Assembly: GCA_035290625.1 (NCBI GenBank)
Contig: DATDTY010000067.1
Coordinates: 1-51,139, forward strand
DNA: 51,139 nucleotides
Direction of reading: 5' to 3'
Source: Candidatus Nanoarchaeia archaeon
Lineage (GTDB): Archaea > Nanobdellota > Nanobdellia > Woesearchaeales > DATDTY01
The position numbers were made by a program, and so were the translations under genes. Under the pieces are notes generated by a model, which did no database searches, was not told where the DNA came from, and saw only the letters and a list, made by a program, of their open reading frames with translations. The number at the start of each line of letters is the position of its first letter. The first letter of the stretch is position 1. Of this stretch, positions 19,461-36,937 are shown piece after piece.

Positions 19461-19787
19461 CTAGGGTTGATTAGGGTGAGTTCTTTGTAACAACGTTCTG
19501 ATTTCTTGCTCTAATCTTTCACGTCTAATCCTCGATTTATCTCGTTGATACCACGCGCCTATCGCTATGAATGCTATAAGTGTTAAGACTATTGCTAAAG
19601 TAAGAATGAAATATAGTTTGTTAAAATTAAATGCCCCAACTTGGATAAGAGAAAGCCAAATACCAATTGTACCAATGACAATACCATTAAATATTTCCCA
19701 AAAACTTGAAAATATGGTATGTGCCTTTGATATTTCTCTTTCATACTGTAGTATTAATATTTGTAAGGGGGTAGTTTCTTTTTTCAT
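19461..19787 (-). CDS. Small 2-TM hypothetical protein
   Basis: Two hydrophobic segments and a basic tail; AT-rich island. Confidence 0.6.
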   Translation of the reverse strand: MKKETTPLQILILQYEREISKAHTIFSSFWEIFNGIVIGTIGIWLSLIQVGAFNFNKLYFILTLAIVLTLIAFIAIGAWYQRDKSRIRRERLEQEIRTLLQRTHPNQP

Positions 19788-20010
19788 TAACGTAAATTCT
19801 TACATATCTCCAAGAACCGATACCAACACAAAAATATAAGAACGCTATCCACAAAAACAAACTCACTGAAGTTAATAATAAAATAAGAAAGAAAAATAAA
19901 CCACCTATAAAACTACTTACACTAATACAGATAAATAAGAGAAGATTTATTTTTTCTTCTTTGCTCAGTATATCATTCTGAACATTTTGCATGTTTGTAG
20001 TTTTCCCCAT
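19741..20010 (-). CDS. Small hydrophobic hypothetical protein
   Basis: Mostly TM; overlaps neighbours in a co-directional run. Confidence 0.5.
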   Translation of the reverse strand: MGKTTNMQNVQNDILSKEEKINLLLFICISVSSFIGGLFFFLILLLTSVSLFLWIAFLYFCVGIGSWRYVRIYVNEKRNYPLTNINTTV

Positions 20011-20224
20011 CCAATTTATCGAGTTGTTCTTTACTTATATAAACTAAATTGGAATTATCTACATTGTTTATAGAGCACTTAAACAAGTCGTATGTTGTAT
20101 TAGAAGAAACATCTAAAACATACCGACTCTCTGAAACAGCTTTATAGGTTCCATACAACCCTAAAGCAACGATACCTAGTAACAGGAACGTACCTACTAC
20201 TATAGCTTCTCCTTTTTTGTCCAT
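19973..20224 (-). CDS. Small exported protein with a class III (prepilin-like) signal
   Basis: Likely start MDKKG-EAIVVGTFLLLGIVALGL at 20224. Confidence 0.55.
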   Translation of the reverse strand: MDKKGEAIVVGTFLLLGIVALGLYGTYKAVSESRYVLDVSSNTTYDLFKCSINNVDNSNLVYISKEQLDKLDGENYKHAKCSE

Positions 20225-20370
20225 TGGACTATACTCATACATTTTTGGACTATTTAGTTCTTTCTTTGTTACTCTGGAGTACTCAGAATGTATAAAAACT
20301 TTTAGGTTATCCGATGAGACTAACCTAACTAAGTGACGTTTACTTAACCGTTCATTACACGTAATTAAAC

Positions 20371-21033
20371 CTATTTGAAAGTATGGGATAAAATTAACAG
20401 CACAAAAATTAATCTCAAAGACCATTGTTCATTTGCGTAATTCGGTTGTATGCCGTGCATAACATCATTTCTAAATTCCCATAACTTTTTGTATTTCCAA
20501 ACTCGAGTTTTGAATTGTTCTTTTGACATAAATTCACAAAAGTTTTTGTCGAAAAGAGCGTGTAGTTCTTTTAAAACCTTTTCCATATTAGCATAACCTT
20601 TTCCTTGAATCCGCCCTCCCTTCACAATATTCTTCTCCTCTCCAAACTTGATAAATATGCCATCTATTGATAAAAGTAATAAAGGAATTGAGACATAATA
20701 ACCTTCTTTCCTGTTGTTGATGTGAGCAATTAATGCTCTGTTGATAACCTTATAGTATGGTTTAATGAACTTATTTGACCTGAACAATCTAAGAAGCTGT
20801 TTAACATCTTCTTTATCGGTTACGAAATTGTTGAATCTATTGTGAGTATGGTCATAAAAAGAGGAATAAGTTATTGGGAGTTCTCCGTGTAATATCCATT
20901 TGTGGAGAGAGTTTCTTATTTTATTATAACGTCTCTCTTGAAGCTTACCTGCCGTCTCCAATGCCTGATTTAATGCTTTAAATCTTGCACTAATCAACTC
21001 AATAACCCCAAAGATAGGTTTTCTTGGCGTCAT
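20371..21033 (-). CDS. Hypothetical protein with a HEPN-type RNxxxHG motif
   Basis: LLSIDG...FRNDVMHG followed by a terminal helix. Confidence 0.6.
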   Translation of the reverse strand: MTPRKPIFGVIELISARFKALNQALETAGKLQERRYNKIRNSLHKWILHGELPITYSSFYDHTHNRFNNFVTDKEDVKQLLRLFRSNKFIKPYYKVINRALIAHINNRKEGYYVSIPLLLLSIDGIFIKFGEEKNIVKGGRIQGKGYANMEKVLKELHALFDKNFCEFMSKEQFKTRVWKYKKLWEFRNDVMHGIQPNYANEQWSLRLIFVLLILSHTFK

Positions 21034-21099
21034 ATAGCCTATGACTTACAAATAGTATAAATACCTATTCTAATTTTTTCTTTATCGAGATTGATTCAG

Positions 21100-21642
21100 T
21101 TATCCCCGATTAAAAATGAAAGCTAGAACAGCAATGATTACTGCTACAATTGCCCAGAAAATGGCTACATCTTTGATGATTTTCTCCCCAGACAATTCTG
21201 AATACAGTCTTCCAACTTCTCTAAATCTTAATAATCTATCCTCCATCTCCAAAGCAGTATGGGGATTCTCCAATTCCTTTCTCAATTCCTTTATATTATC
21301 CAGCTTCTTTCTATAATCTGAATTCTTTATGAAATAATATCTACAAAATAAAAGAATCTCATGCAAACTTGAAGTCAGATTTTTCTCTTTAAATGAAATA
21401 TAGGTTTGCCACACCATTATCTCATAACTATGAAGTCTTTTTCTGATTGCAGTTTGGGGCTGAAGAGGCGGCTCCTTATCCGCAAAATAATCTTTGGTTA
21501 TATTCACATAATCCGAAAAGTGCTTAGTCACCTGAGAATAATAGTCTCTATAGTCCTTCAAAGATAGACGTTGAGCTGCTATCTCTTTGCTTATAGTAAC
21601 TACATTTTCTCCGAATTGTAATATCTCTGAGGATAGACTCAT
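21100..21642 (-). CDS. Hypothetical protein with a C-terminal TM anchor
   Basis: Helical body ending AIFWAIVAVIIAVLAFIF; ATGA-coupled to the upstream ORF. Confidence 0.65.
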   Translation of the reverse strand: MSLSSEILQFGENVVTISKEIAAQRLSLKDYRDYYSQVTKHFSDYVNITKDYFADKEPPLQPQTAIRKRLHSYEIMVWQTYISFKEKNLTSSLHEILLFCRYYFIKNSDYRKKLDNIKELRKELENPHTALEMEDRLLRFREVGRLYSELSGEKIIKDVAIFWAIVAVIIAVLAFIFNRG

Positions 21643-22519: not shown

Positions 22520-23749
22520 ATGTCAAAGAAAAAGGAAGGCCAGCCGGAGATTAACATTGGCTTGTTCGGCCATGTTGATCATGGTAAGACAACACTTCTT
22601 CAGCGCCTGAGTGGCAAATGGGCTGATACGCATTCTGAAGAGATTAAGAGGGGCATCACGATTCGCCTCGGCTATGCCTATATCGAGATACGGAAATGCC
22701 CGAAATGCAGCACCTATACTGTAAAGGAGGAATGCCCTGAATGCAACGAGAAGGCCGAGCCAGTGAGGAAGATAAGCTTTGTTGACGCTCCCGGGCATGA
22801 AAGCTTAATGGCAACGATGCTTGCAGGCTCTGCAATCATCGATGCAGCATTGCTCCTTGTGGCAGCCAACGAGGACTGCCCCCAGCCGCAGACGCGGGAG
22901 CATTTAATGGCTTTGGAGATCCTCGGCATCAAAGATATCATCATTATCCAGAATAAGATTGACCTGGTGGATGAAAAAACCAGCCTCAAGAACTACAATG
23001 AGATCAGGAGCCTGCTCAAGGATACTGCCTACGCTGATGCCCCCATCATCCCTGTGAGCGCGCAGTTTGGGGTGAACATCGACCTGCTGCTTGAGGAGAT
23101 AGAGGGCAGGTTCAGGACTCCAAAGAGAGAGGCAGGCAAAGATCCCCTCTTCTTGGTCGCACGGAGTTTTGACGTTAACAAGCCAGGCACAGAGATCGCA
23201 AAGCTTCAGGGAGGCGTTGTTGGAGGCACGGTGATTCGTGGAAAGCTCAAGATAGGCGATGAGATTGAGATCAGGCCTGGAAGGCTTGTTGAGGAGAAGA
23301 ACCAGAAGGTGTGGAAGCCAATTCTCTCAAAGATCGTGGAAATTCAGAGCGGAGGAGTTTCCTTAAAAGAGGTTGTGCCCGGAGGATCAGCTGCCCTGCA
23401 GACCTCCCTTGACCCGTTTCTGGTGAAGTCTGACTCTCTTGTGGGGGGCATTGTCGGCCATGTGAAGAAACTCCCTCCGGTCTGGGAGGAACTTCATTTG
23501 GCTCCGAAGCTGCTCAAACGTGTTGTTGGTGCAAAGGAGGACCTTGCCGTTGAGGAGCTGAAGATGAACGAGGTATTGATGCTCAACGTGAATTCTGCGG
23601 CAACTGTCGGAACCATCACAAAGGTAGGAAAGGACATTGTTGAGGCTGTCCTGAAGCTTCCGGTCTGCGCCGAGAAGGGCAGCAGGGTGGCGATCTCAAG
23701 AAGGATAGGGAACAGGTTCAGGCTGATTGGATATGGGGTTATACAATAG
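22520..23749 (+). CDS. eif2g: Translation initiation factor aIF-2 gamma
   Basis: QPEINIG, GHVDHGKTT, RGITIRLGY, Zn knuckle, DAPGHE and QNKID. Confidence 0.97.
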   Translation: MSKKKEGQPEINIGLFGHVDHGKTTLLQRLSGKWADTHSEEIKRGITIRLGYAYIEIRKCPKCSTYTVKEECPECNEKAEPVRKISFVDAPGHESLMATMLAGSAIIDAALLLVAANEDCPQPQTREHLMALEILGIKDIIIIQNKIDLVDEKTSLKNYNEIRSLLKDTAYADAPIIPVSAQFGVNIDLLLEEIEGRFRTPKREAGKDPLFLVARSFDVNKPGTEIAKLQGGVVGGTVIRGKLKIGDEIEIRPGRLVEEKNQKVWKPILSKIVEIQSGGVSLKEVVPGGSAALQTSLDPFLVKSDSLVGGIVGHVKKLPPVWEELHLAPKLLKRVVGAKEDLAVEELKMNEVLMLNVNSAATVGTITKVGKDIVEAVLKLPVCAEKGSRVAISRRIGNRFRLIGYGVIQ

Positions 23750-23762
23750 CTGACTAAGAAAT

Positions 23763-24272
23763 TTAATCTCTCAGCACATACTTGCCATTTTCTTCGAAAA
23801 CAATCGCTCCTCTAAACGGATCGTTTTCCTGATAGAGATGTAAGTTGTACATGTTATTGAGTATTGCATCTAATTCTTCTGCTGCTCTTTCATTAGTTTT
23901 ATCAGGAACCGTAACCTGTATTGTATACCTTAGCTCTCTATCTCCGATTTCTTGTTTTGTCCTTAATCTATCTTGAGTGCTCATTGCGCTAGGAAATCGT
24001 ATCCGGGATTTAGCACTTTCATAAGCTGGCATTAATAGGGGATCTCCTTCTAGTCCGCCTAACCCTTCTGTCAAGGAAAGTTCTAATTCAGACGGAGTTT
24101 GAGTAGCCTCCCTGATGAAAGGCAGATACCCTTCAATTTCTCCTTTTGAAGCATTACAATCAAAAAATCCGTACGCTTTTCCGCCTGGTTTAGCCGTAGG
24201 GCTCGTATTTACTTTCCTGCCCTCTCTATCAACGAATGACATATCCATTGGGTATACCTTTGTAGCTGCCAT
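23763..24272 (-). CDS. Hypothetical protein
   Basis: 169-aa ORF with its own TATA at 24295-24302. Confidence 0.65.
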   Translation of the reverse strand: MAATKVYPMDMSFVDREGRKVNTSPTAKPGGKAYGFFDCNASKGEIEGYLPFIREATQTPSELELSLTEGLGGLEGDPLLMPAYESAKSRIRFPSAMSTQDRLRTKQEIGDRELRYTIQVTVPDKTNERAAEELDAILNNMYNLHLYQENDPFRGAIVFEENGKYVLRD

Positions 24273-24400
24273 ACCCTTACTATGGATTGTCTAGTATATA
24301 AACCTTTCAATTTGTAACTACTAAAAAGAGACTATAAACTCGGGTTGAGCCTGCTACCGTAGAGTGTTTTAGGGAGCACATCTTTCTTATCAAATCTTGC

Positions 24401-25138
24401 TTAGGGAGCACAGTTCGCAATCTTCACGAAATGGCCTGGAAGCAGGGATTCGTGCCCTACCAATAATCCGTCGATTGCTGCTTTTTTGAGAAAGGAAGGG
24501 GCGTTTCTTGGAGTGACGCTTCCTCCGTAGAGGATTGGTATCTTTTTTGCTGTGGCTGCTGAGCTTGATTTTGCCAGAACAGAGCGGATGAATTCGTTGG
24601 TCTTTTCTGCGTTTTCAGGGGTGTCTGGCGTATGTGAGCCTATAGCCCATAACGGCTCATAGGCGATGATGATGTTTTTTAGCTTGTGGGTTCCTTTTAA
24701 TGCTGTGAGGAGCTGATTCCTCAAGACATGCGAGGCCTGGCCTAATCTTCTCTGCAGGCCTGTCTCACCGATGCAGAGGATAGGAGTGAGGCTGTGCTTC
24801 AGGCAGGCCCTAAGCTTTTGATTAATGAGGCGGTTATTCTCATGGAGGATAGAGCGCCTCTCTGAATGGCCGATGAGCACGTACTTTACATTAAGTTCTT
24901 TCAGCATCAAGGGAGAGATCTCTCCTGTAAACGCTCCTCTTGTTTCGTAGAAGACATCTTGGGCTCCTAAACGTATGTTGGTTTTTTTGAGAAGAGGGGC
25001 GATTGGGCAGATGTCTGTGTACGGAGGGCAGAGGACGATGGTACGCTTTGTTTTTATTCTTGGAAGGATTTGCTTTACGAATGCCAAAGACTGCTTCTGG
25101 GTCTTGTGCATCTTCCAGTTGGCGACAATGTACTTCAT
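24401..25138 (-). CDS. tpiA: Triosephosphate isomerase (bacterial-type)
   Basis: ANWKMHK, GAFTGEISP, IGHSERR, AYEPLWAIG and LYGGSV motifs. Confidence 0.95.
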   Translation of the reverse strand: MKYIVANWKMHKTQKQSLAFVKQILPRIKTKRTIVLCPPYTDICPIAPLLKKTNIRLGAQDVFYETRGAFTGEISPLMLKELNVKYVLIGHSERRSILHENNRLINQKLRACLKHSLTPILCIGETGLQRRLGQASHVLRNQLLTALKGTHKLKNIIIAYEPLWAIGSHTPDTPENAEKTNEFIRSVLAKSSSAATAKKIPILYGGSVTPRNAPSFLKKAAIDGLLVGHESLLPGHFVKIANCAP

Positions 25139-25371
25139 GCCATACTACTTGGGAACTGGGTTTATAAGGGTTTCGAGGTCCGGCAGGGTTACCTCTTCCG
25201 ATGAGCGAAGCGATACATCAAGAACAGGTATCAAGTGGGAGTTCGTTTCCAAACCGAAGGCTCTTTTTGTTAATGCAATCGGGGGAGTTCCGTTAGTTAG
25301 GTTCTCGTGGACCAAATATCACTCACAAGTAGAAACATTTTTAAATACGCGGATATGTCTAATACAATAAG

Positions 25372-27081
25372 ATGTTAAAACAAAAAATCCTAGTTACAGC
25401 TGCGCTTCCGTATATTAATAATGTTCCTCATATGGGGCATATTGTTGGATCTCATCTGCCAGCAGATATATTTTATCGATATTGCAGAGCAAAGGGCTAT
25501 GATGCTATTTTTGTGGGTGGTTCAGATGAACACGGAACCCCATCTGCTGTGGCAGCAAAAGAACTGGGGTTGCATCCTCAACAATTAGTAGATAAACTTC
25601 ATAATATTCATAAAAAAGTTTATGAAAGACTAAATATTGATTATACAAATTATTCTAGAACCTCAAATTTATCACATCACAAAACCGTACAGGATTTTTT
25701 TAATGTCATTAATGAAAACGGATACGTTAGTAAAGGAAGTATGAGAATGTATTTTTGTGAAAATGATAATATGTTTCTTCCAGATAGGTTTGTTGTTGGA
25801 ACATGCCCAAAATGTGGTTACGAATCTGCTAATGCCGATCAATGTGAGAGCTGTGCATCAGTTTTGGCTCCAGACGAATTAGTTGATCCACATTGTAAAA
25901 GTTGTGAAGCAACACCTATAATGAAGGAATCAGAACATTTGTATATTCGTTTAGATCGGTTGGCAGAAAGTCTAGATAAGTGGATAGAAGGAAATAAAGG
26001 GACTTGGAGATCTCAAGTTTATGGAGAAGCCAAAAAATGGATTAGAGAAGGATTGAGAGAACGATCAATAACTAGAGATTTAGAATGGGGTGTGAAAGTT
26101 CCATCGGAAGCGTTGGAGAATAAAGTGTTTTATGTTTGGTTTGATGCACCAATAGGTTATATGACTTTCACGAGAGAGATTGGTGAAGACGTTTTCGATG
26201 AATATTGGAGAGATCCAGAATCAAAAATATTTCACTTTTTAGGAAAGGACAATATACCATTTCATACTGTTTTTTGGCCTGGTATGCTAATAGCGCATGG
26301 TGGATTTAATTTGCCATTAAATGTAGTAGGTTCTAATTATCTAAATTTTGAAGGACAAAAATTTTCTAAAAGCAAGGGGGTCGGCGTATTTTGTTATAAT
26401 CTGTTGGACTCAGATATAGATATAGATGTTCTCCGTTCTTATTTGACAACGGTAATCCCAGAAACAAAAGAATCTGACTTCAAGTGGGGGGAGTTTAGAA
26501 CTATCACTAATAATGAACTTATTGGTAAGTTAGGCAATCTCTTTAATAGAACCCTGAATATGATTTGGAAGAATTTCGGAGGACAACTAAATTACAGTAC
26601 GTTATCAGACCTAAATGGTATTGACAATCATTTGATAGAAGCGATAAAGACAGAACCATTATCTATAGGCGACCTCTTCTTTGGAGTGGAGTTTAGAGAA
26701 GCCTATAGAAGGATTATGCAATATGCTTCAGAAGGGAATGTTTATCTCCACAAAACCGCGCCATGGAATTTAATAAAAGAAGGCAGGGAAGAAGAGGCAA
26801 AGAAATCTCTTTATCTCGCTCTAAGCTTATGTAGATCTTTAGCTATTGTTTCAAGCCCCATATTGCCTGAAAGTATGCAGAGATTATGGACTGATCAGTT
26901 AAATCTTCGCGGTTCTTTGTCAACTCCAGGAATTTGGGATGAAGCTACTCAAATAAGTATTCCATCTGACCACACAATAAACAAACCAGAACCATTATAT
27001 GCTAGAATAGACGATAAGAGATTGGAAGAACTAGAAAAACATCTATCAAAACCCCACTCACTGGAAGAACTAGTTAAGTAA
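25372..27081 (+). CDS. metG: Methionyl-tRNA synthetase (no C-terminal OB domain), first gene of an AT-rich operon
   Basis: ALPY, HMGH, DEHG, Zn knuckles, YVWFDA, GKDNIPFH and KFSKS. Confidence 0.93.
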   Translation: MLKQKILVTAALPYINNVPHMGHIVGSHLPADIFYRYCRAKGYDAIFVGGSDEHGTPSAVAAKELGLHPQQLVDKLHNIHKKVYERLNIDYTNYSRTSNLSHHKTVQDFFNVINENGYVSKGSMRMYFCENDNMFLPDRFVVGTCPKCGYESANADQCESCASVLAPDELVDPHCKSCEATPIMKESEHLYIRLDRLAESLDKWIEGNKGTWRSQVYGEAKKWIREGLRERSITRDLEWGVKVPSEALENKVFYVWFDAPIGYMTFTREIGEDVFDEYWRDPESKIFHFLGKDNIPFHTVFWPGMLIAHGGFNLPLNVVGSNYLNFEGQKFSKSKGVGVFCYNLLDSDIDIDVLRSYLTTVIPETKESDFKWGEFRTITNNELIGKLGNLFNRTLNMIWKNFGGQLNYSTLSDLNGIDNHLIEAIKTEPLSIGDLFFGVEFREAYRRIMQYASEGNVYLHKTAPWNLIKEGREEEAKKSLYLALSLCRSLAIVSSPILPESMQRLWTDQLNLRGSLSTPGIWDEATQISIPSDHTINKPEPLYARIDDKRLEELEKHLSKPHSLEELVK

Positions 27082-27093
27082 GCTAGCATCAAA

Positions 27094-28770
27094 ATGAATA
27101 AAAATGAAATATACGAGAGAATTAAGCAATACTTCCCGCTTCAATTTACTGAGAACCACATTTCTGAATACTTAGTACGATGTCTTAGGGCCGTTGCTCA
27201 AAAGATAGATTCCGATGATTTGGCAAGGTTGAATGGTTCTGCTGGTAAATCTGAATTCAAAGGTTTAGTTGAAAAATATTCATCAGTCCCAAAGGTTGGA
27301 GAGCCTGCAGAAGAGGTCTTAGAAAGCATTGTTAATGATTTGTTCTCACGTGTTCCAAGATGGCGGAGTCCGGAACTACAGTATAATGTCGGAACTGCCG
27401 TAAATTCGGTTGCTTTAGCGGCTTATGTCTTAGCATTAGAGGAGAATATCTATGCGATAAATGATGGCCTAGCAGGAAACTCTCTTGTAGCAGAAGAAGC
27501 TGTTTCTAGCATATTAGCCAGAGATCTTGCGGGTGTTGAAAAAAAAGCAAGAGGCTTCTTTACATTTGGAGGGACTGCTACAAACTTATATGCTAAAAAA
27601 TTGGGCATAAAGAAAGCCGTCCCAGGATCCTCAAGGAAAGGCAATACTGAAGGAATTAAGGCAATGGTCACAAGAGACTGCCACTTTTCTCATGACGTTT
27701 CTATTGATTGGCTAGGCATTGGCAAAGATAACACAATAATAATTGAGCCAGGAAGTGACAGAAGAAGTAATCTGGATGATGCCGAAAGAAAAATAAGAGA
27801 GGCGCTTGATTCTGGTGGAATACTAACTTCCATAGCAGTTAATGGGGGTACGACATACAATCACATTGTTGATGGTATAAACGGATTTGTCGAACTTAGG
27901 GATAGGATTGTCCAAGAATATTCTTTAAGTTACACTCCTCACGTCCATGTTGACTCTGTAATCGGATGGTCATGGCTATTTTTTAGAGGATATGACTTTG
28001 AAAATAATCCGTTAGATATTAATCAAAGAGCTTTAAACATGATTAGAGAACAGTATGGACGAATTTCTCACATTAATATGGCAGATTCATGGGGTGTTGA
28101 TTTTCATAAAGGCATCGGTGCCTGCCCAGTAGATTGCAGCGTTTTCATGGTTAATGATGAACGGGATTTGAGATATATCTCAAAGAAGGGAGAAATTGAC
28201 ATTCATCATCTAGCTGAAGAATTTAGTTTCACAAGCCCAGTAGATTTTACGTTAGAAACTTCTCGATCAGCAGGTCCTGCTTTATCAGCACTAGCCTCTC
28301 TTCGTCTTTTGGGATTAAACGGTTACAGAAGAAATCTTGCTAACTTGATAGAGCAGACCGTAGTCATGAGAGACTCGTTGCGTGAACACAAAGACATGTA
28401 CATTTGTCACGAAGAAGCCTCCTTAGGTTTTGTGACAATGCTTCGGTTTTATCCTCCCGAACTTATGCGAGACCCGAGATTATGTATTGAACTCTCCGAC
28501 CCATCTTTGGATACAAAAAACATCAGCGAACAAGTTAACAAATATATGAAGGAATTTTTCACATGGGACGAATCTACGAGAATGAGGGCGGGACGCGGTG
28601 TGGAGTATTCTATCAGTTCCGGTTATATTACTTTATCAAATGGTGCAAAAATAACTGGTGTAAAATTGTATCCTGTATCACCTCATTTTAATGAGCAATA
28701 TGCAAGGAAGGCTGTTGAAACAATTGTATCGCAGAAGAAAATATTTGATCAACAAGTTAAGGGAAAATGA
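27094..28770 (+). CDS. Group II PLP-dependent decarboxylase
   Basis: GGTATN, HFS, GGTT, HVHVD and DSWGVDFHK (PLP lysine). Confidence 0.85.
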   Translation: MNKNEIYERIKQYFPLQFTENHISEYLVRCLRAVAQKIDSDDLARLNGSAGKSEFKGLVEKYSSVPKVGEPAEEVLESIVNDLFSRVPRWRSPELQYNVGTAVNSVALAAYVLALEENIYAINDGLAGNSLVAEEAVSSILARDLAGVEKKARGFFTFGGTATNLYAKKLGIKKAVPGSSRKGNTEGIKAMVTRDCHFSHDVSIDWLGIGKDNTIIIEPGSDRRSNLDDAERKIREALDSGGILTSIAVNGGTTYNHIVDGINGFVELRDRIVQEYSLSYTPHVHVDSVIGWSWLFFRGYDFENNPLDINQRALNMIREQYGRISHINMADSWGVDFHKGIGACPVDCSVFMVNDERDLRYISKKGEIDIHHLAEEFSFTSPVDFTLETSRSAGPALSALASLRLLGLNGYRRNLANLIEQTVVMRDSLREHKDMYICHEEASLGFVTMLRFYPPELMRDPRLCIELSDPSLDTKNISEQVNKYMKEFFTWDESTRMRAGRGVEYSISSGYITLSNGAKITGVKLYPVSPHFNEQYARKAVETIVSQKKIFDQQVKGK

Positions 28771-29627
28771 ACCAACCCCAAAAAGAAATCAGTAGCTTGC
28801 TTGATTATTCTCATGAGGTGACTGGACTTGACCAATTTATTTTATATGGGGGAACTCCGTTAGATTTAATGATTCATGGAAGCTATCATGATATTGATCT
28901 TGCAACTCAAGGGAAGAGTGAAGAATGGATTACTGCGTTAAATAAACAATTTTCAGCGAAAGGATTTGATGTAATTCAACCAAGAAGGCCGTATCAAATA
29001 CGTAATGGCTCCGTAGAGGTTATCTTAGTTTATGCCAAAAATGATGCTAATTTTTTTGATGTTTGTTTTATGGAAGACTTAAGTTTAATTGGACTATTTG
29101 ATATAGAATCATCTTACTGGAAATATCCGAAAAAAGAGCATGTTGACCAATATAATGCACTTGAAGCATTAGCGTCAAAGTGTATTAGGCCAATAAGATC
29201 ATTTGAATCAGAAAACCCATTATTGTGGTTCTCACGATTTGTACGTCTTTGTTCAAAATACAATTTTCAAATGACCAATACCTCCCATGCTCCAATAATT
29301 GATGCAATAAATTCAAGAGTTGGTTATGATGAACAGACTGTTAGTTCACCCCAATATTCCTCAGCAGTATCATCTGTTTTCAGTGCAATATTGCGAGCAA
29401 AAGACCGTCAAAAGTTTTCTAGTGAACTTATTGAAACCGGGTTGATACGTAAGCTTCTACCAGAACTGGATAAATTTTTAAGCAGAACGAATGAAGACGT
29501 GCTGATCAGAATTAGAAACAGAGAAGAATTTTGTGGCATTTTAAGAGAAAACCTTTCACCTGAAGAAAGAGTAGATCTCGACAAAAAGTTACAGGAGTTA
29601 AGCTACAGAAGTTGGGAAAATGAGTGA
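28767..29627 (+). CDS. Nucleotidyltransferase, degenerate class II CCA/poly(A)-polymerase-like
   Basis: LYGGTPLD...DIDL motif A; ENPLLWFSRFVRL resembles EDPLRxxRxxRF. Confidence 0.65.
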   Translation: MNQPQKEISSLLDYSHEVTGLDQFILYGGTPLDLMIHGSYHDIDLATQGKSEEWITALNKQFSAKGFDVIQPRRPYQIRNGSVEVILVYAKNDANFFDVCFMEDLSLIGLFDIESSYWKYPKKEHVDQYNALEALASKCIRPIRSFESENPLLWFSRFVRLCSKYNFQMTNTSHAPIIDAINSRVGYDEQTVSSPQYSSAVSSVFSAILRAKDRQKFSSELIETGLIRKLLPELDKFLSRTNEDVLIRIRNREEFCGILRENLSPEERVDLDKKLQELSYRSWENE

Positions 29628-30651
29628 TAAAATGGAAAAAATTGAGTATTTATTACATTTGCCAAGTGAATATCAACTTATGTTAGCAAGTTTTTTCGTT
29701 ACTAACCCCGTTGCTTTACAAAGAATGAAAAAACAATGGGTTGAAAGAGATACTGAACACAAAGTAAGAGGAAGAACAGACGCACAGTCTAAAGAATTTA
29801 GGAATGATCTTCTTGGTGGGGCTGTTTGTCTTTTTGATCCGAACAGAGTTGATTTGGGTTTTCTGGCAGAAGTTAATGTGCCAACCGCATCTGGTTTATA
29901 CTATCCTCCTTCAGAGAAGGCTCTATATGTTGGAAGTAATATGTATGTGAAGAAAGTTCAGAGAGGAAAAGTTGTTGACACATTAAACAATAATTTGTTC
30001 TGCGATGTACACACAATTGAAGAAGGACCAGATAAGAAATTGCTTATCGCTTCCACGGGTGTTGATGGGATTCTCCTAATAGATCCTAAAAGTCCTCAGC
30101 GAGTGATTTGGGACTGGCTGGCTACAAAGCATGGATACAATAGAACGCCAGATGGAAGAAGAAGAAAAATTGATAGGGGGGTAAATTATCAAGAGGTTTA
30201 TTCAATAACACCAGATCACACCACCCATCTAAATACGGCTATTTTTCACAACGGCAGGATTTATGCTTGCTTATTCCACCAAGGTTCTCTGGTTGAGATT
30301 GATCCAGATACAAGGAAGCATGATGTTGTTCTAGAGGGAATGATCTGTCCCCATCATATTAAGCCAAGAGAAGGGGGGTATATTATTTCAAATTCAAGAG
30401 CAAATAAGGTGCTGTTGCTTGACGGAGGATTTAATGTCACAAGAACTATAGATGGTGATTTTGATTGGGTTCAGGATGCTACCCCACTAGAAGATAATAA
30501 ATACTTGATTGGCGATTCTAATAATAATAGGTTTGTAAAAGTTGATGAACATGGTTACAAAATCGATGAGTTAAGGTACGAAGAGAGGAAGATGTTTTGC
30601 TTTCTACCAATCAAAAAACAAGACGTTGTGGAGATTTTTGGGGCATCATAA
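29620..30651 (+). CDS. Beta-propeller protein (NHL/sulfotransferase-like)
   Basis: DVHT, IASTGVD, HLNT, PHHI and IGDSNNNR blade patterns. Confidence 0.6.
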   Translation: MSDKMEKIEYLLHLPSEYQLMLASFFVTNPVALQRMKKQWVERDTEHKVRGRTDAQSKEFRNDLLGGAVCLFDPNRVDLGFLAEVNVPTASGLYYPPSEKALYVGSNMYVKKVQRGKVVDTLNNNLFCDVHTIEEGPDKKLLIASTGVDGILLIDPKSPQRVIWDWLATKHGYNRTPDGRRRKIDRGVNYQEVYSITPDHTTHLNTAIFHNGRIYACLFHQGSLVEIDPDTRKHDVVLEGMICPHHIKPREGGYIISNSRANKVLLLDGGFNVTRTIDGDFDWVQDATPLEDNKYLIGDSNNNRFVKVDEHGYKIDELRYEERKMFCFLPIKKQDVVEIFGAS

Positions 30652-30653
30652 AA

Positions 30654-31802
30654 ATGTCATTAACAATAATCATCTCGGCGCTTAATGAAGAACAAAATAT
30701 TGAAGCTGTTTTAAGTAAGCTAGAGAATCAAGTTGATGAAAAAGGGAATGTGTTAGACAAAGATAAGTATAATGTACTTGTAGTTGATAATGGAAGCAGT
30801 GATGATACGGCAAAATTAGTCAGGAGATTTAGTGAGCAGAGCGAATTGCACATTGGAATGACGTATGAACCAGTTCAAAACATAATCACTGCAAGAAGAG
30901 CTGGTGTTCGAGAATTGCAAGCAAATAAATTTTATGCCAACACTAGATTTCTAGCTTTTTGTGACGCTGATGTTTCTGTCCCTGGCGAATGGATTAGTTC
31001 AATGATGACAGGATTTAAAGATAGAGGCACTGGAATTTTATCATACAACGGCTCGTTTCCACACAGTTTTTGGGAAAAAGTACCCAGACTTGTTGAAAAA
31101 TACGTCTTGGAGGTAGGAACTTTATTCTTTCCAATGGAGACCATAACCTATTATGAGGTGCATAAAAGAGATGTTAAGTTTACTAGACAGATATACTCTG
31201 ATTTTGTAAGACCGCCAAGCGGTGGTTTTTATGCCATTAGATTAGATCATTATAATTCTGTTAATGGTTATGAGAGAGAGTTTACTGATGATGGTAAAGA
31301 GGTTGATGGGCCAACATGGAGACTATACATCAAACTGATGGGCGCAGGAGCTAATCTTAAATTTATTCCTGATATTGAAATGATTAATAGTGAAAGAAGG
31401 TTATTAGGAGCCCCCGAGAAATTCTTCAGAGTCCAGGAATACGATCAACTAAGTGATCTTAGGCAGGATCTGCGAGAAAGAAGTGACAGCCAGTACAGTT
31501 TTGTTGATAATTTAGCGAGTTCTATTGACTTTACCCCTGTACAAAGATATGTGACTCAATATTACTTGTTATTTCCATGCGTTAATAGACCAGAACTTAT
31601 AGGATTGAATGAAACGTATTTTGGCTCATTAAAAAGAGCTGTAGAAACAGATATTCTTCAGTGGAGATCAAAGAATAACCGTGCAAGAGGACAGGATGTT
31701 TTTAGATTTTGTGATGAGTTAACTGACAAATACTCTGATAAATTATGGCATGAAATACCAACTGGGAGGGAAGAAGCTCAGCCACCAAAATCCAGAAAAT
31801 GA
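30654..31802 (+). CDS. GT2 glycosyltransferase
   Basis: IIISALNEE, VVDNGSSDDT and FCDAD motifs; start at 30654. Confidence 0.85.
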   Translation: MSLTIIISALNEEQNIEAVLSKLENQVDEKGNVLDKDKYNVLVVDNGSSDDTAKLVRRFSEQSELHIGMTYEPVQNIITARRAGVRELQANKFYANTRFLAFCDADVSVPGEWISSMMTGFKDRGTGILSYNGSFPHSFWEKVPRLVEKYVLEVGTLFFPMETITYYEVHKRDVKFTRQIYSDFVRPPSGGFYAIRLDHYNSVNGYEREFTDDGKEVDGPTWRLYIKLMGAGANLKFIPDIEMINSERRLLGAPEKFFRVQEYDQLSDLRQDLRERSDSQYSFVDNLASSIDFTPVQRYVTQYYLLFPCVNRPELIGLNETYFGSLKRAVETDILQWRSKNNRARGQDVFRFCDELTDKYSDKLWHEIPTGREEAQPPKSRK

Positions 31803-32815
31803 GAATAATAGAAGATGATCAGGTACATTCAAAAGCTTCTGATGGTAATTGGAGACCATCACAAGTAGTTGAAGAAGCAAAACAAAGAGGTCTCCAAGCA
31901 ATTGCTCTTACTGACCATGACACTACTTTTGGTGTTCCTGAAGCCCAAGAAACTGGAAAAAGGGTTGGAGTAATTGTGCATAGTGGTATCGAAGTTAATT
32001 CTTCCTATCAAGACTCAGATGTAACCTTAGATAGTTTAGATATATTAGGCCTAAAAATGAATCTAGATTTAATTCAGCCACTTGAGAGTAAACTGTCTGT
32101 CTATAGGCATGATGCACTTGATAGGATCATAGATAAGCTTAATCAGTATATCTCTTCAGAGGAGTTTGAAAGAGATGATAGGGAGAAAAGGTACTCTCTT
32201 AAGAGTCCAAGAGTAATAAGCGTCGACGATCTCATTACCTGGAAATGTGAATGGAATGATTATAAATGTGAAGTGCCATACATTTCTGATTGGGAAATTG
32301 CATTTTATGCCTTTGGTCGTTTCGCTCCTCACTTGAATTTAGAGAAAAGAACATTGGGTGGGGACAGAAGTGTTATGAAAGAAATAATGAGAGAATATCC
32401 ATTTTTATTCCAAAGAACAACCAGGAGGCCATCCTGGGAAGAAGCGATGAGAGAAATTAAAAATGCCGAAGGTTTAGCTGTATGGAGTCATCCCGGGCGG
32501 GCACTTTATTATCAAGAAAGCGGGCTAATTAAAGAATGGGAACTCGACGAAAATGGATGGTGCTTACCTGAGAGAAAGAAAAGTCCATTTGCCGTAGCAC
32601 AAAAATTAGCTGAAAAAGGATTGGATGGGATTGAGTTGTATTATTATGCTGGAAATGATACTCTTCATGGTCATATACAAGAACAGATCAACAAGTATTT
32701 TAAATTAATGGCAGAAACATTTGGACTTATGGTCACTTATGGATCTGACTGCCATGGACCGCGATTAAGAGAACCGTATATGGGGGTATTTGGTTCTTCT
32801 ACGCTGATATTGTAA
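31799..32815 (+). CDS. PHP-family phosphoesterase
   Basis: QVHSKASDG, ALTDHD, GIE, SHPG and GSDCHG motifs. Confidence 0.88.
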   Translation: MRIIEDDQVHSKASDGNWRPSQVVEEAKQRGLQAIALTDHDTTFGVPEAQETGKRVGVIVHSGIEVNSSYQDSDVTLDSLDILGLKMNLDLIQPLESKLSVYRHDALDRIIDKLNQYISSEEFERDDREKRYSLKSPRVISVDDLITWKCEWNDYKCEVPYISDWEIAFYAFGRFAPHLNLEKRTLGGDRSVMKEIMREYPFLFQRTTRRPSWEEAMREIKNAEGLAVWSHPGRALYYQESGLIKEWELDENGWCLPERKKSPFAVAQKLAEKGLDGIELYYYAGNDTLHGHIQEQINKYFKLMAETFGLMVTYGSDCHGPRLREPYMGVFGSSTLIL

Positions 32816-32820
32816 TCAAG

Positions 32821-33654
32821 ATGGAAATCATAAACAAAACCATGGACCGGGGAGATTTGTTTACTGATGAATCTATGCCCGCAATAAACCGGATTGATGA
32901 CTTGATTCGTGACATTTACTCTAGGGGATTGAATATCACAAACTGGTATGGTTTTATGACAGACGACAGAGAAGCTGAAAGTCTGCAGGGTGTTGGGATA
33001 GACAATAGAGGTTCAGATTATGAGCCGCTCACAGGAGTTGTTGATGATGGAAGATTTCCATGGTACTTATATTGGGAAACATGTACCGTCCTGGCAAACG
33101 GCCCTAAACTAAAAAAAGACCATGTTGTTTTAGATGCAGGAGGAACTTCTTCTTTATTTAGTTGTTATCTTGCTTCTCGAGGAGCCGAGATGCATTCGAT
33201 AGATTTTAATGAGGAAATTGTTGCGAACGGCAATAAGTTAAGCCAAGAGATGGGTTGGAATATGTCCTCATACCATATGGATATGAGGACACTGGATTTC
33301 CCTGACGAATTTTTTAATCACGCTTATTCGATTTGTGTGTTTGAACATTTAGAGTCTAGAGTAAAGCAACTTGCATTAGAGGAGATTGCAAGATGCTTGA
33401 AACCAAAGGGGATGTTATCAATAACTTTTGATTACAAAAATCCTGCTCCTGATGTCTATCCAATTGGGCCGGATACAAGTTCTGAGAATAGACCCTCAAC
33501 AACAGAAGATATTGGGAGGGCATTTCTTTCAACAGGGCGTTTTGAGTTAGTAGGAAACAAAGAATTTTTTGATAACGGGAAAACATATTTAATGAACCCT
33601 AAATTTGGCAACCGTCCCTATACTTTTGGAGCGATATTTTTACAGAAAAAATAG
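32821..33654 (+). CDS. Class I SAM-dependent methyltransferase
   Basis: VLDAGG, DMRTLDFPD, SICVFEHL and RCLKPKG motifs. Confidence 0.88.
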   Translation: MEIINKTMDRGDLFTDESMPAINRIDDLIRDIYSRGLNITNWYGFMTDDREAESLQGVGIDNRGSDYEPLTGVVDDGRFPWYLYWETCTVLANGPKLKKDHVVLDAGGTSSLFSCYLASRGAEMHSIDFNEEIVANGNKLSQEMGWNMSSYHMDMRTLDFPDEFFNHAYSICVFEHLESRVKQLALEEIARCLKPKGMLSITFDYKNPAPDVYPIGPDTSSENRPSTTEDIGRAFLSTGRFELVGNKEFFDNGKTYLMNPKFGNRPYTFGAIFLQKK

Positions 33655-33690
33655 TAAACTTATTAAATAAGATTAAACATAATTGTAAAA

Positions 33691-34239
33691 ATGGATATCG
33701 GATTTGCAATACTTTTAGAGGATGAATGTTACAACTACTCTCGTAAATTAGAATTAAAACTATGTGAAAAATTCGGTTTATGCTGGGGCTTGAAGCAAAG
33801 TCCACACATAACCATTAAGGCACCATTTGAAACAGACAAATTAGGCCCATTTGTAAAATATCTGAAGAGCTTGGCAAAAGAGATATCTCCATTTGAAATC
33901 GAATTAGAAGGGTTTAATTACTTCGGGAATAAAGTTATTTTTCTTGATGTAAAGAGAAACAAGCAGCTTAAAGAGTTGCATTTTAGAATCTTAAGAGATT
34001 TACAAAGTAAGTTTAGTATCAATCCGCACGAATTGGAAGGTAAACATGTAAAATTTCATTCTAGTATTGCTACTGGCGACGTGACTGAGGAAAAGTTTAG
34101 GAAAGCAAAGCAATATCTGAAGAAATATCATCCAAACTTTAAGTTTACAGCAAAGACTATGGGGATTTTTTATTATCTTGGTGAAGATGCTGGATGGATT
34201 ATAGTAAGAAGGACAAAGTTTAATAGAGATAGAAAATAG
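33691..34239 (+). CDS. 2H phosphoesterase (2'-5' RNA ligase/YjcG-like)
   Basis: Two HxT/S motifs: PHITIKAPF and FHSSIA. Confidence 0.85.
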   Translation: MDIGFAILLEDECYNYSRKLELKLCEKFGLCWGLKQSPHITIKAPFETDKLGPFVKYLKSLAKEISPFEIELEGFNYFGNKVIFLDVKRNKQLKELHFRILRDLQSKFSINPHELEGKHVKFHSSIATGDVTEEKFRKAKQYLKKYHPNFKFTAKTMGIFYYLGEDAGWIIVRRTKFNRDRK

Positions 34240-34242
34240 TTT

Positions 34243-35019
34243 TTAGTGGCTGTAATATTCCTTCAGCGTCGCTTTTCTTCCTGAAGGAGTATATGCGAAA
34301 GCGCCGAACTCTTTCATGTTTTTTGCTTCCTTGAAGCTGAACACAGGCCCGTCCTTGCATACTAACCTGTCATCTACCATGCACTGGGCGCAGATTCCGT
34401 AACCGCAGGCCATGAAGCGCTCTAAGGAGAGTTCTCCCTGAATGCTGTGTTTTAACCCTAGTTCCATCACTTTTTTCATCATGACCTCAGGTCCGCAGGC
34501 GTAGATGAAGTCTATTTTTTTGTTTTTTAATTCGTTTTCCAATACCGCTGTTGTAAAGCCTTTAAATCCAAAGCTGCCGTCATCAGTGCAGAATCTTGCG
34601 TTTTTAAAGCGGTCTTTGTATAATAATAATTCCCTGGTTCTTGCTCCATTGATGATGATTGGATTGTTTAATTCTTCTATCAAGGTTGCCACTGAGGCCA
34701 TGCCCAGGCCGCCTGCTACGACTATTGATTTTCCCTTCTTTATCGAGAACGGTTTTCCATAGGGGCCTCTGATGCCGAGCTTGTCTCCTGGCTTTAGGGT
34801 TATTAGTTTCTTTGTGCATTCTCCCTTTGCTTCTACGGTTATTCCTATCTGGTCTTTGGAGTGGTAGGATAACGCGAACGGCTTCTCATCAATGCCAGGA
34901 AGCCAGAGCATTATAAATTGGCCTGGCTGGTAATCAATCTTATGGTTCAGGAAGAGGGTTGAGACGGTTTTGGATTCCTTCTTTACTTTCGTGATTTTTA
35001 GGACTTTTGGGATTTCCAT
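34243..35019 (-). CDS. pyrK: Dihydroorotate dehydrogenase electron-transfer subunit
   Basis: PGQFIMLW, RGPYG, AGGLG, ACGPE and CGYGICAQC...C motifs. Confidence 0.93.
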   Translation of the reverse strand: MEIPKVLKITKVKKESKTVSTLFLNHKIDYQPGQFIMLWLPGIDEKPFALSYHSKDQIGITVEAKGECTKKLITLKPGDKLGIRGPYGKPFSIKKGKSIVVAGGLGMASVATLIEELNNPIIINGARTRELLLYKDRFKNARFCTDDGSFGFKGFTTAVLENELKNKKIDFIYACGPEVMMKKVMELGLKHSIQGELSLERFMACGYGICAQCMVDDRLVCKDGPVFSFKEAKNMKEFGAFAYTPSGRKATLKEYYSH

Positions 35020-35831
35020 TTCAGGCTTCTCCTTTTCTGCGATTCAGGCTGTTGCAGATAATTCTCATCCGTAATAACCTTATCTCCGGATTCAAGCTCA
35101 AGATTCTTTCGTGCATCTCCAGCTATCTTACCTCCTTTCCTGGCAGCACTTTTATTCTCAGAGAATCCTAATGCATTTCTGCTTCGTGCGATCTTTGTTG
35201 TTGATGCTTCTCCCAACATTGTGAAGATAATCTCGAGATCAGTCATATGGTCCCTTAGATTCTCTTTTTTAAGAGATTTAAGCTTTTTGTATTCATCAAC
35301 CGTCTTGCCAAACGTTGCCTTGCTGATTTCGTTTGTAAGAATTGCATATTCTTTGTCTTCTTTTACTCCTCGTTTAGACCATTCGTCAGTTAATTCCTGC
35401 CTTACTGCAATGCCCCTGACCCTCTTTTCTATCCAGTCATCAGAATAGCCTTTTTGCTTGTACAACTCCTTCATACGCTTTTGTGTAAGTTCTGGATCTT
35501 GTATTTCCTCCACACGCTCATAACCGACTTGCGCAAGCCATTGCTTAAAGGGCTCGGCCTTTGGGGATGGGATGGACTGGATTATACGGAACATGTTCTT
35601 TGTATTTGCGCAGTCTGTAGCGTAGGATTTACCATCAGCTGAGGGTAATTTCAGTTGTAAACAATATGTTAACAACTGACTTTCTCTTCCTTTCAAAACC
35701 CCCCAGTATTGCCTGGGGCTTGGGCTGTCAGTGAGTGCCTGAACTACATCCACCACAGAGAAATACCACTGATTTTCATGCCAGATTCTTCTTATCCGCT
35801 TGTCTTGGAAGACGACTAAGGCTTTGTCCAT
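34998..35831 (-). CDS. Bro-N domain protein (antirepressor-like)
   Basis: WYFSVVDVV, RIIQSIPSPKAEPFKQWLA and NLRDHMTDLE motifs. Confidence 0.88.
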   Translation of the reverse strand: MDKALVVFQDKRIRRIWHENQWYFSVVDVVQALTDSPSPRQYWGVLKGRESQLLTYCLQLKLPSADGKSYATDCANTKNMFRIIQSIPSPKAEPFKQWLAQVGYERVEEIQDPELTQKRMKELYKQKGYSDDWIEKRVRGIAVRQELTDEWSKRGVKEDKEYAILTNEISKATFGKTVDEYKKLKSLKKENLRDHMTDLEIIFTMLGEASTTKIARSRNALGFSENKSAARKGGKIAGDARKNLELESGDKVITDENYLQQPESQKRRSLKWKSQKS

Positions 35832-35993: not shown

Positions 35994-36416
35994 TTATTTC
36001 TTTAAAAATTTCCTGGCCATCTCGTGAAATTCCCTGCATATCCCAAGGTCAAACTCTGCAGTCTCTCTAGAATAGGAATAATGGTAATCAGCATCTTCTC
36101 TTGCACTCATCGCAGCCTTAAAATCGTTGATATGCCTGCTCTCAATCTTTCCATTTTTGTTTAAGTGCTCCAATACAGCAATGACTGCAATGTGTTTTTT
36201 CTCAATATAGCCCTGATCGTAAAGGACGGCTTTGGCGGCATGAAACATGGAATAATAGCATTTCACAATACTCCATTTGTAATCCTCATCACTGAGCGCT
36301 TTTTCAGCTTTCCCAAGGTCATAGGCTGACTCATTTAATTCCTTTTCGCTGAGCTCCTTATCTGGGCTCGTTTTTATCAGGAATCTCTTTTCAATGCATT
36401 GCTTCAGGCTTATCAT
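35994..36416 (-). CDS. HEPN-domain protein (UPF0332-like), pair 1
   Basis: YYSMFHAAKAVL...H...REDADY; ATGA-coupled to the MNT gene. Confidence 0.88.
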   Translation of the reverse strand: MISLKQCIEKRFLIKTSPDKELSEKELNESAYDLGKAEKALSDEDYKWSIVKCYYSMFHAAKAVLYDQGYIEKKHIAVIAVLEHLNKNGKIESRHINDFKAAMSAREDADYHYSYSRETAEFDLGICREFHEMARKFLKK

Positions 36417-36937
36417 ACAAGCCTCACCTTGTCCTTCTCAACCCTCTCATAGAATGCCTTGTCCTGCTTGGCCATCTTTGACCATTCCAGGTCTGTGAAT
36501 ATGTTAAAACTTATCTTTCTTCCCATCTTTCTCTCCAGGGATTCCATATCGCGTATGATCTCTGTTCTTCTGGCCTTTCCTATGATCAAGAGATCCATAT
36601 CACTGTCTGTACTGTAGTCTCCTCTTGCGCAGCTTCCATACAGGTATACCTCTGAATTCTCTGGCTTCTTTATATCGCTTAATCCCATCAGGATATTTAT
36701 CTTCTTGAGTTCGGTAATCACCCCGTTATCATTGTTGATGTTCACCATGCGGCTAGAGCCTATTGTCTTTCTTGTTATGAATCCGTTTTTTTCAAGATAG
36801 TACAGCCATTTTATGACTGTGGCTTTTGATATCTTTGTTTTTTGTACCAGCTCTCTCTGGAGGACGTCTTCATGGTCTACAAGGTATTTTAGAATGAGGA
36901 GTATCTTCTTGTTGCCGAATAGGTCTTCCAGCTGCAT
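36413..36937 (-). CDS. wHTH-minimal nucleotidyltransferase (MNT), pair 1
   Basis: N-terminal HTH; LYGSCARG...SDMDLLII. Confidence 0.88.
   Translation of the reverse strand: MQLEDLFGNKKILLILKYLVDHEDVLQRELVQKTKISKATVIKWLYYLEKNGFITRKTIGSSRMVNINNDNGVITELKKINILMGLSDIKKPENSEVYLYGSCARGDYSTDSDMDLLIIGKARRTEIIRDMESLERKMGRKISFNIFTDLEWSKMAKQDKAFYERVEKDKVRLV

Follow-up and report, generated by a model that had tools for sequence, protein, structure and literature searches.

We describe a gene cassette found in an eight-gene block at positions 25372..34239 of a 51,139-nucleotide contig (DATDTY010000067.1, referred to below in its full length as the window) from a Candidatus Nanoarchaeia archaeon of the Woesearchaeales. 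The conserved unit is smaller than the block. It consists of a pyridoxal phosphate (PLP)-dependent decarboxylase-like enzyme, a nucleotidyltransferase and an aminoacyl-tRNA synthetase (aaRS), whereas the remaining genes of the block, five in all, are tailoring genes that vary between loci. The cassette is real, widespread but sparse, and uncharacterised; its core enzymes are new, while the presence of a cognate aaRS within a gene cluster is already known from other systems. In all likelihood the three genes form a functional unit keyed to the amino acid of the synthetase, and the product is probably a small nucleotide conjugate. With distinctly less confidence we favour the reading that this is a mobile cassette making a mimic of the aminoacyl-adenylate from that amino acid, with the aaRS serving as immunity. 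No description of this gene combination was found in the open-access literature.

In the window, the core opens the block, whose eight open reading frames (ORFs) all lie on the + strand. The methionyl-tRNA synthetase (MetRS) gene metG (25372..27081, 569 aa) encodes an enzyme of the archaeal, MetRS2 type (NF001100). It is followed by the gene for the group II PLP-dependent decarboxylase-like enzyme (27094..28770, 558 aa; PF00282), which belongs to an uncharacterised family, and by that for the nucleotidyltransferase (28767..29627, 286 aa), assigned by alignments and Foldseek to the class II fold of CCA-adding enzymes and poly(A) polymerases. The distances between consecutive genes of the block, 5' to 3', are 12, -4, -8, 2, -4, 5 and 36 nt, with ATGA overlaps at 28767 (PLP enzyme and nucleotidyltransferase genes) and 31799 (the GT2 and PHP genes described below).

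The recurrence of the core was followed from the PLP enzyme, for which 8000 scored candidates yielded 749 homologues at E<=0.001. Named homologues come from Nanoarchaeota, Patescibacteria and a few other groups, for example Solirubrobacter, and the hosts of the cassette are mainly bacteria of the Candidate Phyla Radiation (CPR) and DPANN archaea. Three overlapping genome samples were scanned with the PLP profile, which matched 5 of 400 other genomes of the phylum, 5 of the 240 from a second order and, within the window's own order, 3 of 400 further genomes. Used alone as a query, the protein matched only its own genome (1/61) and, against the species genomes, only the near-identical locus L003; no relative of the family was seen among 83 pattern matches in viral contigs. 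Metagenome loci were taken from the profile search (the best 80 of 138), and the 86 PLP loci analysed were reduced to 73 by dereplication at 90%, of which 32 have at least 2 kb of sequence on each side. An aaRS gene is present in 28 of these 32 (17 Met, 4 Leu, 3 Cys, 2 His, 1 Tyr and 1 Trp/Tyr), and a nucleotidyltransferase gene in 25, namely 24 (17 of the CCA fold, 6 MobA-like and 1 MNT) plus the CCA-fold gene of L045. When aaRS genes were labelled, by hand and in a few cases by family membership, 44 of 51 were no more than 2 kb from the PLP gene. The aaRS is frequently encoded on the other strand or at a distance of kilobases.

All eight genes together are seen only where the DNA is near-identical (the window, L003 and L004), seven of the eight genes recur in the same order in genome G605 at 44-65% identity, and loci L006 and L011 carry similar sets. 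Minimal cassettes, with the PLP enzyme, nucleotidyltransferase and aaRS and no transferase of any kind, are found in L053/G527 and L072. A distant PLP homologue in G484 (30% identity) has neither aaRS nor nucleotidyltransferase next to it, G402 holds only a fragment, and two distant relatives (26%) adjoin GadC antiporters instead. The original prediction, made from the window alone, had taken all eight genes as one system with MetRS as a component. The block and its tight coupling are borne out by the ORF coordinates and gaps, and MetRS is indeed part of it in the window; the conserved unit, however, is the three-gene core, and elsewhere the aaRS is not always MetRS. Separately, the PLP gene is broken into at least two ORFs in L066, L075, L065, L079, L080 and L082, and in the first two of these the aaRS is also missing; the split genes may reflect decay of the cassette or sequencing error.

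The synthetase of the block is a second MetRS. A housekeeping MetRS of 702 aa, with host-like GC and 33% identity to the block enzyme, is encoded on contig C17 of the same genome. The block MetRS scores 614.8 bits on NF001100 (cut-off 587), has the motifs HMGH and KFSKS, and in an alignment to the P. abyssi enzyme the methionine pocket and the anticodon domain are present; the C-terminal Trbp domain is absent. It keeps 42 of 46 columns conserved among 47 other MetRSs, with mostly conservative differences, and by these sequence features is an intact, ordinary working enzyme. Copy number was examined in eight genomes, all from outside the CPR. Six of them encode the cluster aaRS in addition to another one: MetRS in G000, G296 and G605, CysRS in G527, LeuRS in G230 and Tyr/Trp-RS in G358, which has four Tyr/Trp-RS matches versus two in three other genomes. 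Of the remaining two, G558 has the cluster MetRS and partial MetRS matches on short contigs, and in G155 the cluster MetRS is the only one found. As background, two full-length MetRSs occur in only 1 of 150 other genomes of the phylum (G084), with split genes in three more. The second MetRS of G084 (L135:4220-5839) falls into one broad clade with the cluster enzyme and has no PLP or nucleotidyltransferase gene on its 11-kb contig; it is possibly a cassette remnant or an independent transfer. In G230 (L093:6463-9215) a second, archaeal LeuRS present as two ORFs (674 and 285 aa) directly follows a very distant PLP homologue that retains the loop tyrosine discussed below.

The case of G155 is informative as to what the cluster synthetase does. 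Gene order around metG is shared with the congener G143, but where G143 has a 492-aa gene of MetRS1 type, G155 has a kinase, the PLP enzyme, the nucleotidyltransferase and a MetRS2, the two MetRSs being 27% identical. The cassette thus replaced the native metG in place, and since its MetRS is the sole copy there, that enzyme most likely charges tRNA. In a MetRS phylogeny the cluster enzymes spread over several unrelated lineages, both MetRS1 and MetRS2 included, and their monophyly is rejected (approximately unbiased test, p-AU 9e-105, on an 18-row subset). This polyphyly fits a need for any working MetRS, and not for a specialised biosynthetic paralogue. The original prediction had suggested that the cluster makes a nucleotide or aminoacyl metabolite, MetRS being either a second copy for resistance or a donor of Met, and had named as its refutation a vertically inherited metG that is the genome's only copy, together with an absence of co-occurrence elsewhere. 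Because a housekeeping metG exists and the core co-occurs widely, that refutation failed and the suggestion gains support.

The AlphaFold model of the PLP enzyme (predicted local distance difference test score, pLDDT, 93) superposes on GADL1, GAD65 and CSAD with Z of 41-42 and root-mean-square deviations of 2.6-2.9 over about 460 aligned residues at 14-19% identity. It matches GAD67 and DfoJ equally well, so the fold reveals no substrate. The family scores 33 bits versus a cut-off of 905 for tyrosine decarboxylase. The PLP lysine K339, the pyridine-stacking H197 and the pyridine-nitrogen aspartate D287 are kept in all 61 rows of the alignment. A tree of 65 PLP proteins was built with FastTree, leaving out seven near-duplicates and any row shorter than 400 aa. 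In it, the Cys, the bacterial-type Leu and the His loci each form one supported clade, and the deepest branches are those of the Tyr/Trp loci and one archaeal Leu locus. The aaRS labels require 6 changes for 6 states on this tree, versus 11-15 in 1000 shuffles. Positions 99, 100, 120, 122 and 390, predicted to line the pocket, differ in the Cys and/or Leu clades. The first four probably correspond, by their spacing from the invariant W90, to Phe101, Pro102, Val122 and Phe124 of CrTDC, and position 390, by its place in a C-terminal motif, to Gly370; these residues are listed for the CrTDC pocket (10.1101/404970). The pairing of decarboxylase and aaRS is directly seen, and from the matching of clades we infer that the aaRS is cognate, i.e. 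that the PLP enzyme acts on the amino acid of the aaRS beside it: Met in the window, and in other loci Cys, Leu, His, Tyr or Trp.

The nucleotidyltransferase has the class II CCA/poly(A) polymerase fold (Foldseek matches to CCA-adding enzymes at E 3e-7, template modelling (TM) scores 0.5-0.6), and its profile retrieves 93 representatives at E<=1e-30. The GG..DxD motif and the third aspartate (D42, D44 and D98) are invariant in 40 rows. The RRD motif is lost and EDxxR has become ENPxx, the EDPVR of poly(A) polymerase aligning with ENPyl in a profile alignment; RRD and EDxxR are the nucleotide-templating motifs of class II CCA-adding enzymes. N150 is conserved, and a GxF precedes an aligned F-T-I-N stretch. 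The protein is also some 100-150 aa shorter than its CCA-enzyme matches. Fusions are found to the PLP enzyme (L038, P0071 and P0115), to a GT2 of the cassette subfamily (P0235, P0243), to a histidine phosphatase (P0191) and to an APH-like kinase of the type seen in G155 and G558 (P0197). Through these fusions the accessory genes are linked to a single pathway, and a small molecule is suggested as the substrate of the enzyme. In 8 of the 73 loci an unrelated MobA/LicC-like enzyme stands in its place. Single loci have other nucleotidylating folds beside the PLP gene: PfkB and CTP_transf_like in L040:3-1238, ThiF in L057:957-2144 and MNT in L018:2512-3249.

The five accessory genes of the window begin with an NHL-like beta-propeller (29620..30651, + strand as are all five; 343 aa), present in 7 of the 73 loci, in which the histidine motifs D-x-H, HTTHxN and FHQG are conserved. 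An assignment as arylsulfotransferase was not supported, as profile searches gave NHL repeats only and the structural likeness was weak. The GT2 glycosyltransferase (30654..31802, 382 aa; PF00535, DxD at 104-106) occurs in 12 loci; its likeliest start is the ATG at 30654, as in homologues, and not the TTG at 30597. Its subfamily is tight and bound to these loci, with 14 full-length homologues after which E falls from 1e-124 to 1e-11. The PHP-family metallophosphoesterase (31799..32815, 338 aa; PF02811) is found in 3 loci; its best NCBIfam match, far under the cut-off, is 3',5'-nucleoside bisphosphate phosphatase, and the first histidine of its HxH is glutamine in the window and G605 and histidine in L006 and L011. 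The class I SAM methyltransferase (32821..33654, 277 aa; PF08241/PF13649) and the 2H phosphoesterase with both HxT/S motifs (33691..34239, 182 aa; PF13563) occur in 5 and 3 loci, respectively, and additionally in G605. The predicted families hold throughout, six of them (MetRS, PLP decarboxylase, GT2, PHP, class I methyltransferase and 2H) by Pfam/NCBIfam; the nucleotidyltransferase and the propeller had no Pfam match at E<=0.05, the former being placed by fold and the latter by its NHL-like repeats. In other loci, where 128 of 282 selected neighbour proteins and a further 16 were scanned, the neighbours include APH kinases, HAD proteins, histidine phosphatases, GT4, carbamoyltransferase, MiaB-like methylthiotransferase, SPASM radical SAM enzymes, PNP, nucleoside monophosphate (NMP) kinases and sulfotransferases. 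Several of these (PNP, NMP kinases, HAD, MiaB-like, carbamoyltransferase and sulfotransferase) are nucleotide-tailoring families.

The block is foreign in composition, as had been predicted. Its GC is 37.0% versus 45.9% for the 1.37-Mb genome, below all of 794 sliding windows of equal size, and the third-position GC (GC3) of its genes is 0.25-0.34 versus a median of 0.52 in 642 long ORFs. Homologous loci reach about 70% GC, so AT-richness is not inherent to the cassette. Host genes (eIF2-gamma, TPI and DHOD-B) flank the block, and contigs from other sequencing runs span both edges, from TPI to metG (24766-26186) and from the 2H gene to the DHOD-B gene (33661-35344); the block is thus physically joined to host genes. 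No convincing terminal repeats were found at its edges, no tRNA lies in the window, and there was no Rfam match. TATA-like boxes were noted by eye at 25338-25347 (TTTTTAAATA) and 33660-33669 (TTATTAAATA), about 21-24 nt upstream of the start codons of metG and the 2H gene, and the latter may have its own promoter. L003, from a second Woesearchaeota record, is about 100% identical to the window over 11.5 kb (23711-35260). The two sequences diverge within eIF2-gamma at the left end (59-67% identity) and within the Bro-N gene at the right end, which would be explained either by chimeric assembly of L003 or by a transfer that took place very recently. The arrangement in L004 agrees with that of the window. 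Elsewhere in the window there is another low-GC island (19461-21642, 32-35% GC) with four unknown minus-strand ORFs, and four putative HEPN/MNT toxin-antitoxin-type pairs, judged from sequence (35994-36937, 41915-43040, 46016-47099 and 49110-50281).

With this in mind, one may propose a mechanism for the cassette. In the window, the PLP enzyme would decarboxylate methionine, and the nucleotidyltransferase would couple the product to a nucleotide, giving a look-alike of the aminoacyl-adenylate, in its simplest form an amine-NMP phosphoramidate. The GT2, methyltransferase, propeller, PHP and 2H proteins would mask, decorate or unmask the nucleotide, a task that elsewhere may fall to kinases, carbamoyltransferase, MiaB-like and SPASM radical SAM enzymes, and sulfotransferases. 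The target would be the cognate aaRS of the host, of a competitor or of cassette-free kin, and the extra, intact MetRS would keep translation going despite the product; the aaRS for a given amino acid would be present because the pathway threatens the charging of its tRNA. A precedent for this logic is offered by tiarin clusters, in which the varying in-cluster aaRS foretold the target of the inhibitor, as was confirmed for ArgRS (10.64898/2025.12.02.691738). Taken further, and here we are speculating beyond what we think likely, CPR bacteria and DPANN archaea might exchange a two-enzyme platform, built from a PLP enzyme with a histidine in its loop and a CCA-fold enzyme turned to small-molecule work, that converts at least five amino acids into aaRS-specific nucleotide poisons, with the cognate aaRS as an antidote able to displace the host gene. 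Such a platform could be a weapon against host translation or a selfish poison-antidote element.

Several observations weigh against the adenylate-mimic reading. The catalytic loop of the PLP enzyme (residues 362-377) lacks tyrosine in 61 of 61 rows; a histidine, His371, is found there in 59 of 61, in a register taken from sequence spacing and not from superposition. In canonical group II enzymes the loop tyrosine protonates the carbanion intermediate, and in DOPA decarboxylase and in plant enzymes its loss redirects the reaction towards oxidative deamination (PMC7497351; 10.1101/404970). The reaction may therefore be other than plain decarboxylation, and formation of an amine is not assured. 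Even an amine-NMP would, on chemical grounds, be an imperfect mimic, as it would lack the alpha-amino group and carbonyl of aminoacyl-AMP. Each aaRS type makes up about one clade of the PLP tree and kin share labels, so the label match shows clade structure and not independent co-evolution. Of the 32 loci, 7 have no nucleotidyltransferase detectable by the profiles used, and 4 have no aaRS, the PLP gene being split or fragmentary in three of these and intact in L034. No exporter recurs among the 128 scanned neighbours and none is in the window's block, and the comparison of conserved columns gave no clear signature of resistance in the block MetRS. The tyrS-tdcA pair of lactic acid bacteria, moreover, explains a cognate aaRS without any inhibitor (PMC3315439).

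That pair leads to the main rival explanation, in which the aaRS merely offsets the drain on its amino acid and the nucleotidyltransferase makes an NMP or nucleoside diphosphate (NDP) donor for transfer to a surface glycan or lipid, with no inhibitor involved. We regard this as unlikely. In its favour, tyrS in the tyramine cluster has been proposed to ensure a supply of charged tRNA while decarboxylation proceeds and can be an extra or the sole copy (PMC3315439), as can the aaRS here; MobA/LicC-like nucleotidyltransferases, APH kinases, GT2 and GT4 occur in the loci, the nucleotidyltransferase is fused to GT2 and to a kinase, and no exporter recurs among the scanned neighbours. However, a GT2 of the cluster type is present in just 12 of 73 loci, the minimal cassettes of L053/G527 and L072 manage without a transferase, none of the 128 scanned neighbours matches LicD, and the amines of Met, Cys, Leu and His would offer no hydroxyl for phosphorylation of the LicA type. 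Less probable again is a biosynthetic aaRS, whose aminoacyl-AMP or aminoacyl-tRNA would serve as acyl donor to the product of the PLP enzyme and nucleotidyltransferase, as in valanimycin or MshC-like pathways. Such uses of aaRSs are known (PMC2922099; for valanimycin, 10.64898/2025.12.02.691738), metG and the PLP gene are tightly coupled in translation (12 nt), and a PLP carbanion relieved of the loop tyrosine could be free to attack an electrophile. Yet the cluster aaRSs are ordinary, full-length and of many lineages, that of G155 is the only metG there, they often lie on the opposite strand or kilobases off, and the gene maps and neighbour scan gave no recurring GNAT- or Fem-type aminoacyl-tRNA transferase.

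The original prediction had also offered a module for tRNA modification or repair that counters HEPN/PIN nucleases. Taken as a module acting on tRNA ends or bases, for instance against nucleases that cut the anticodon or the CCA end, this we now hold to be very improbable. It would account for the CCA-enzyme fold of the nucleotidyltransferase, for the PHP and 2H families, which include RNA-end phosphoesterases, and for the MiaB-like enzymes of some loci. It is nevertheless disfavoured by the loss of the CCA motifs RRD and EDxxR, by the substitution of an unrelated MobA-like enzyme and by the nucleotidyltransferase fusions; in addition, the enzyme is shorter than its CCA matches by the 100-150 aa given above, the host has a class I CCA-enzyme homologue (E 1e-75, below the family cut-off), PHP and 2H are found in just 3 of 73 loci each, and a decarboxylase has no part in end repair. 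A chance gathering of unrelated foreign genes beside metG can hardly be credited: the full eight-gene set is indeed confined to near-identical DNA, but the similar sets of L006 and L011 and core co-occurrence speak against it, and it is contradicted by the conserved order of seven genes in G605 and by the gene fusions. If the reading as an adenylate mimic with an immunity synthetase is true, this would be a new family of natural aaRS inhibitors with a target readable from the neighbouring gene, in producers assumed to be without such chemistry; CPR bacteria and DPANN archaea are thought to be nearly devoid of specialised metabolism. Even under the main rival, the cassette contributes a decarboxylase family that is uncharacterised but whose substrates can be predicted (Met, Cys, Leu, His and Tyr/Trp) and a CCA-fold nucleotidyltransferase acting on small molecules.

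Among known systems, the coupling of a nucleotidyltransferase to a PLP enzyme has a parallel in FrbH of FR-900098 biosynthesis, a cytidylyltransferase-decarboxylase fusion. The cassette resembles FrbH and LicC/PntC (for the latter, PMC6697681) in such coupling or fusion and, in some loci, in having a MobA/LicC-like nucleotidyltransferase and a kinase; it differs in that no PEP mutase or LicD was seen among its scanned neighbours, its commonest nucleotidyltransferase has the CCA fold, and an aaRS belongs to the unit. Class II CCA-adding enzymes and poly(A) polymerase I share with the cassette enzyme the fold (TM 0.5-0.6), the GG..DxD motif and the third aspartate, whereas the cassette enzyme lacks RRD/EDxxR, is shorter and is fused to small-molecule enzymes. 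The MetRS paralogue associated with a cupin (PMC2922099) is likewise an additional MetRS, encoded in an operon predicted to serve a metabolite, but the cassette has neither cupin nor lysine N6-monooxygenase, and its MetRSs are polyphyletic and swapped for other aaRS types. In tyrS-tdcA-tyrP and hisS-hdc of lactic acid bacteria a decarboxylase stands beside its cognate aaRS, which may be an extra or the sole copy (PMC3315439); the cassette has such a pairing with a probably cognate aaRS. There is no amino acid/amine antiporter in the block, one being seen only beside the 26% relatives, and the cassette couples a nucleotidyltransferase and tailoring enzymes instead.

There is an analogy in logic with clusters for aaRS inhibitors, of which albomycin, agrocin 84 and microcin C are examples with an in-cluster aaRS. 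The tiarin/trifolitoxin clusters likewise combine a conserved core with variable tailoring and an in-cluster aaRS that varies in type and is usually a duplicate; they are defined by the dehydrogenases TfxB/TfxC and a precursor peptide, and no FMN dehydrogenase is among the eight block genes. The main text of the tiarin report does not mention a nucleotidyltransferase, a decarboxylase or PLP (10.64898/2025.12.02.691738). The cassette is also without a precursor peptide, a siderophore carrier or a recurring exporter. What sets it apart from these clusters is a core made of a group II PLP enzyme and a nucleotidyltransferase of the CCA or MobA fold, carried mainly by CPR and DPANN hosts, with an aaRS that can be the sole copy in the cell.

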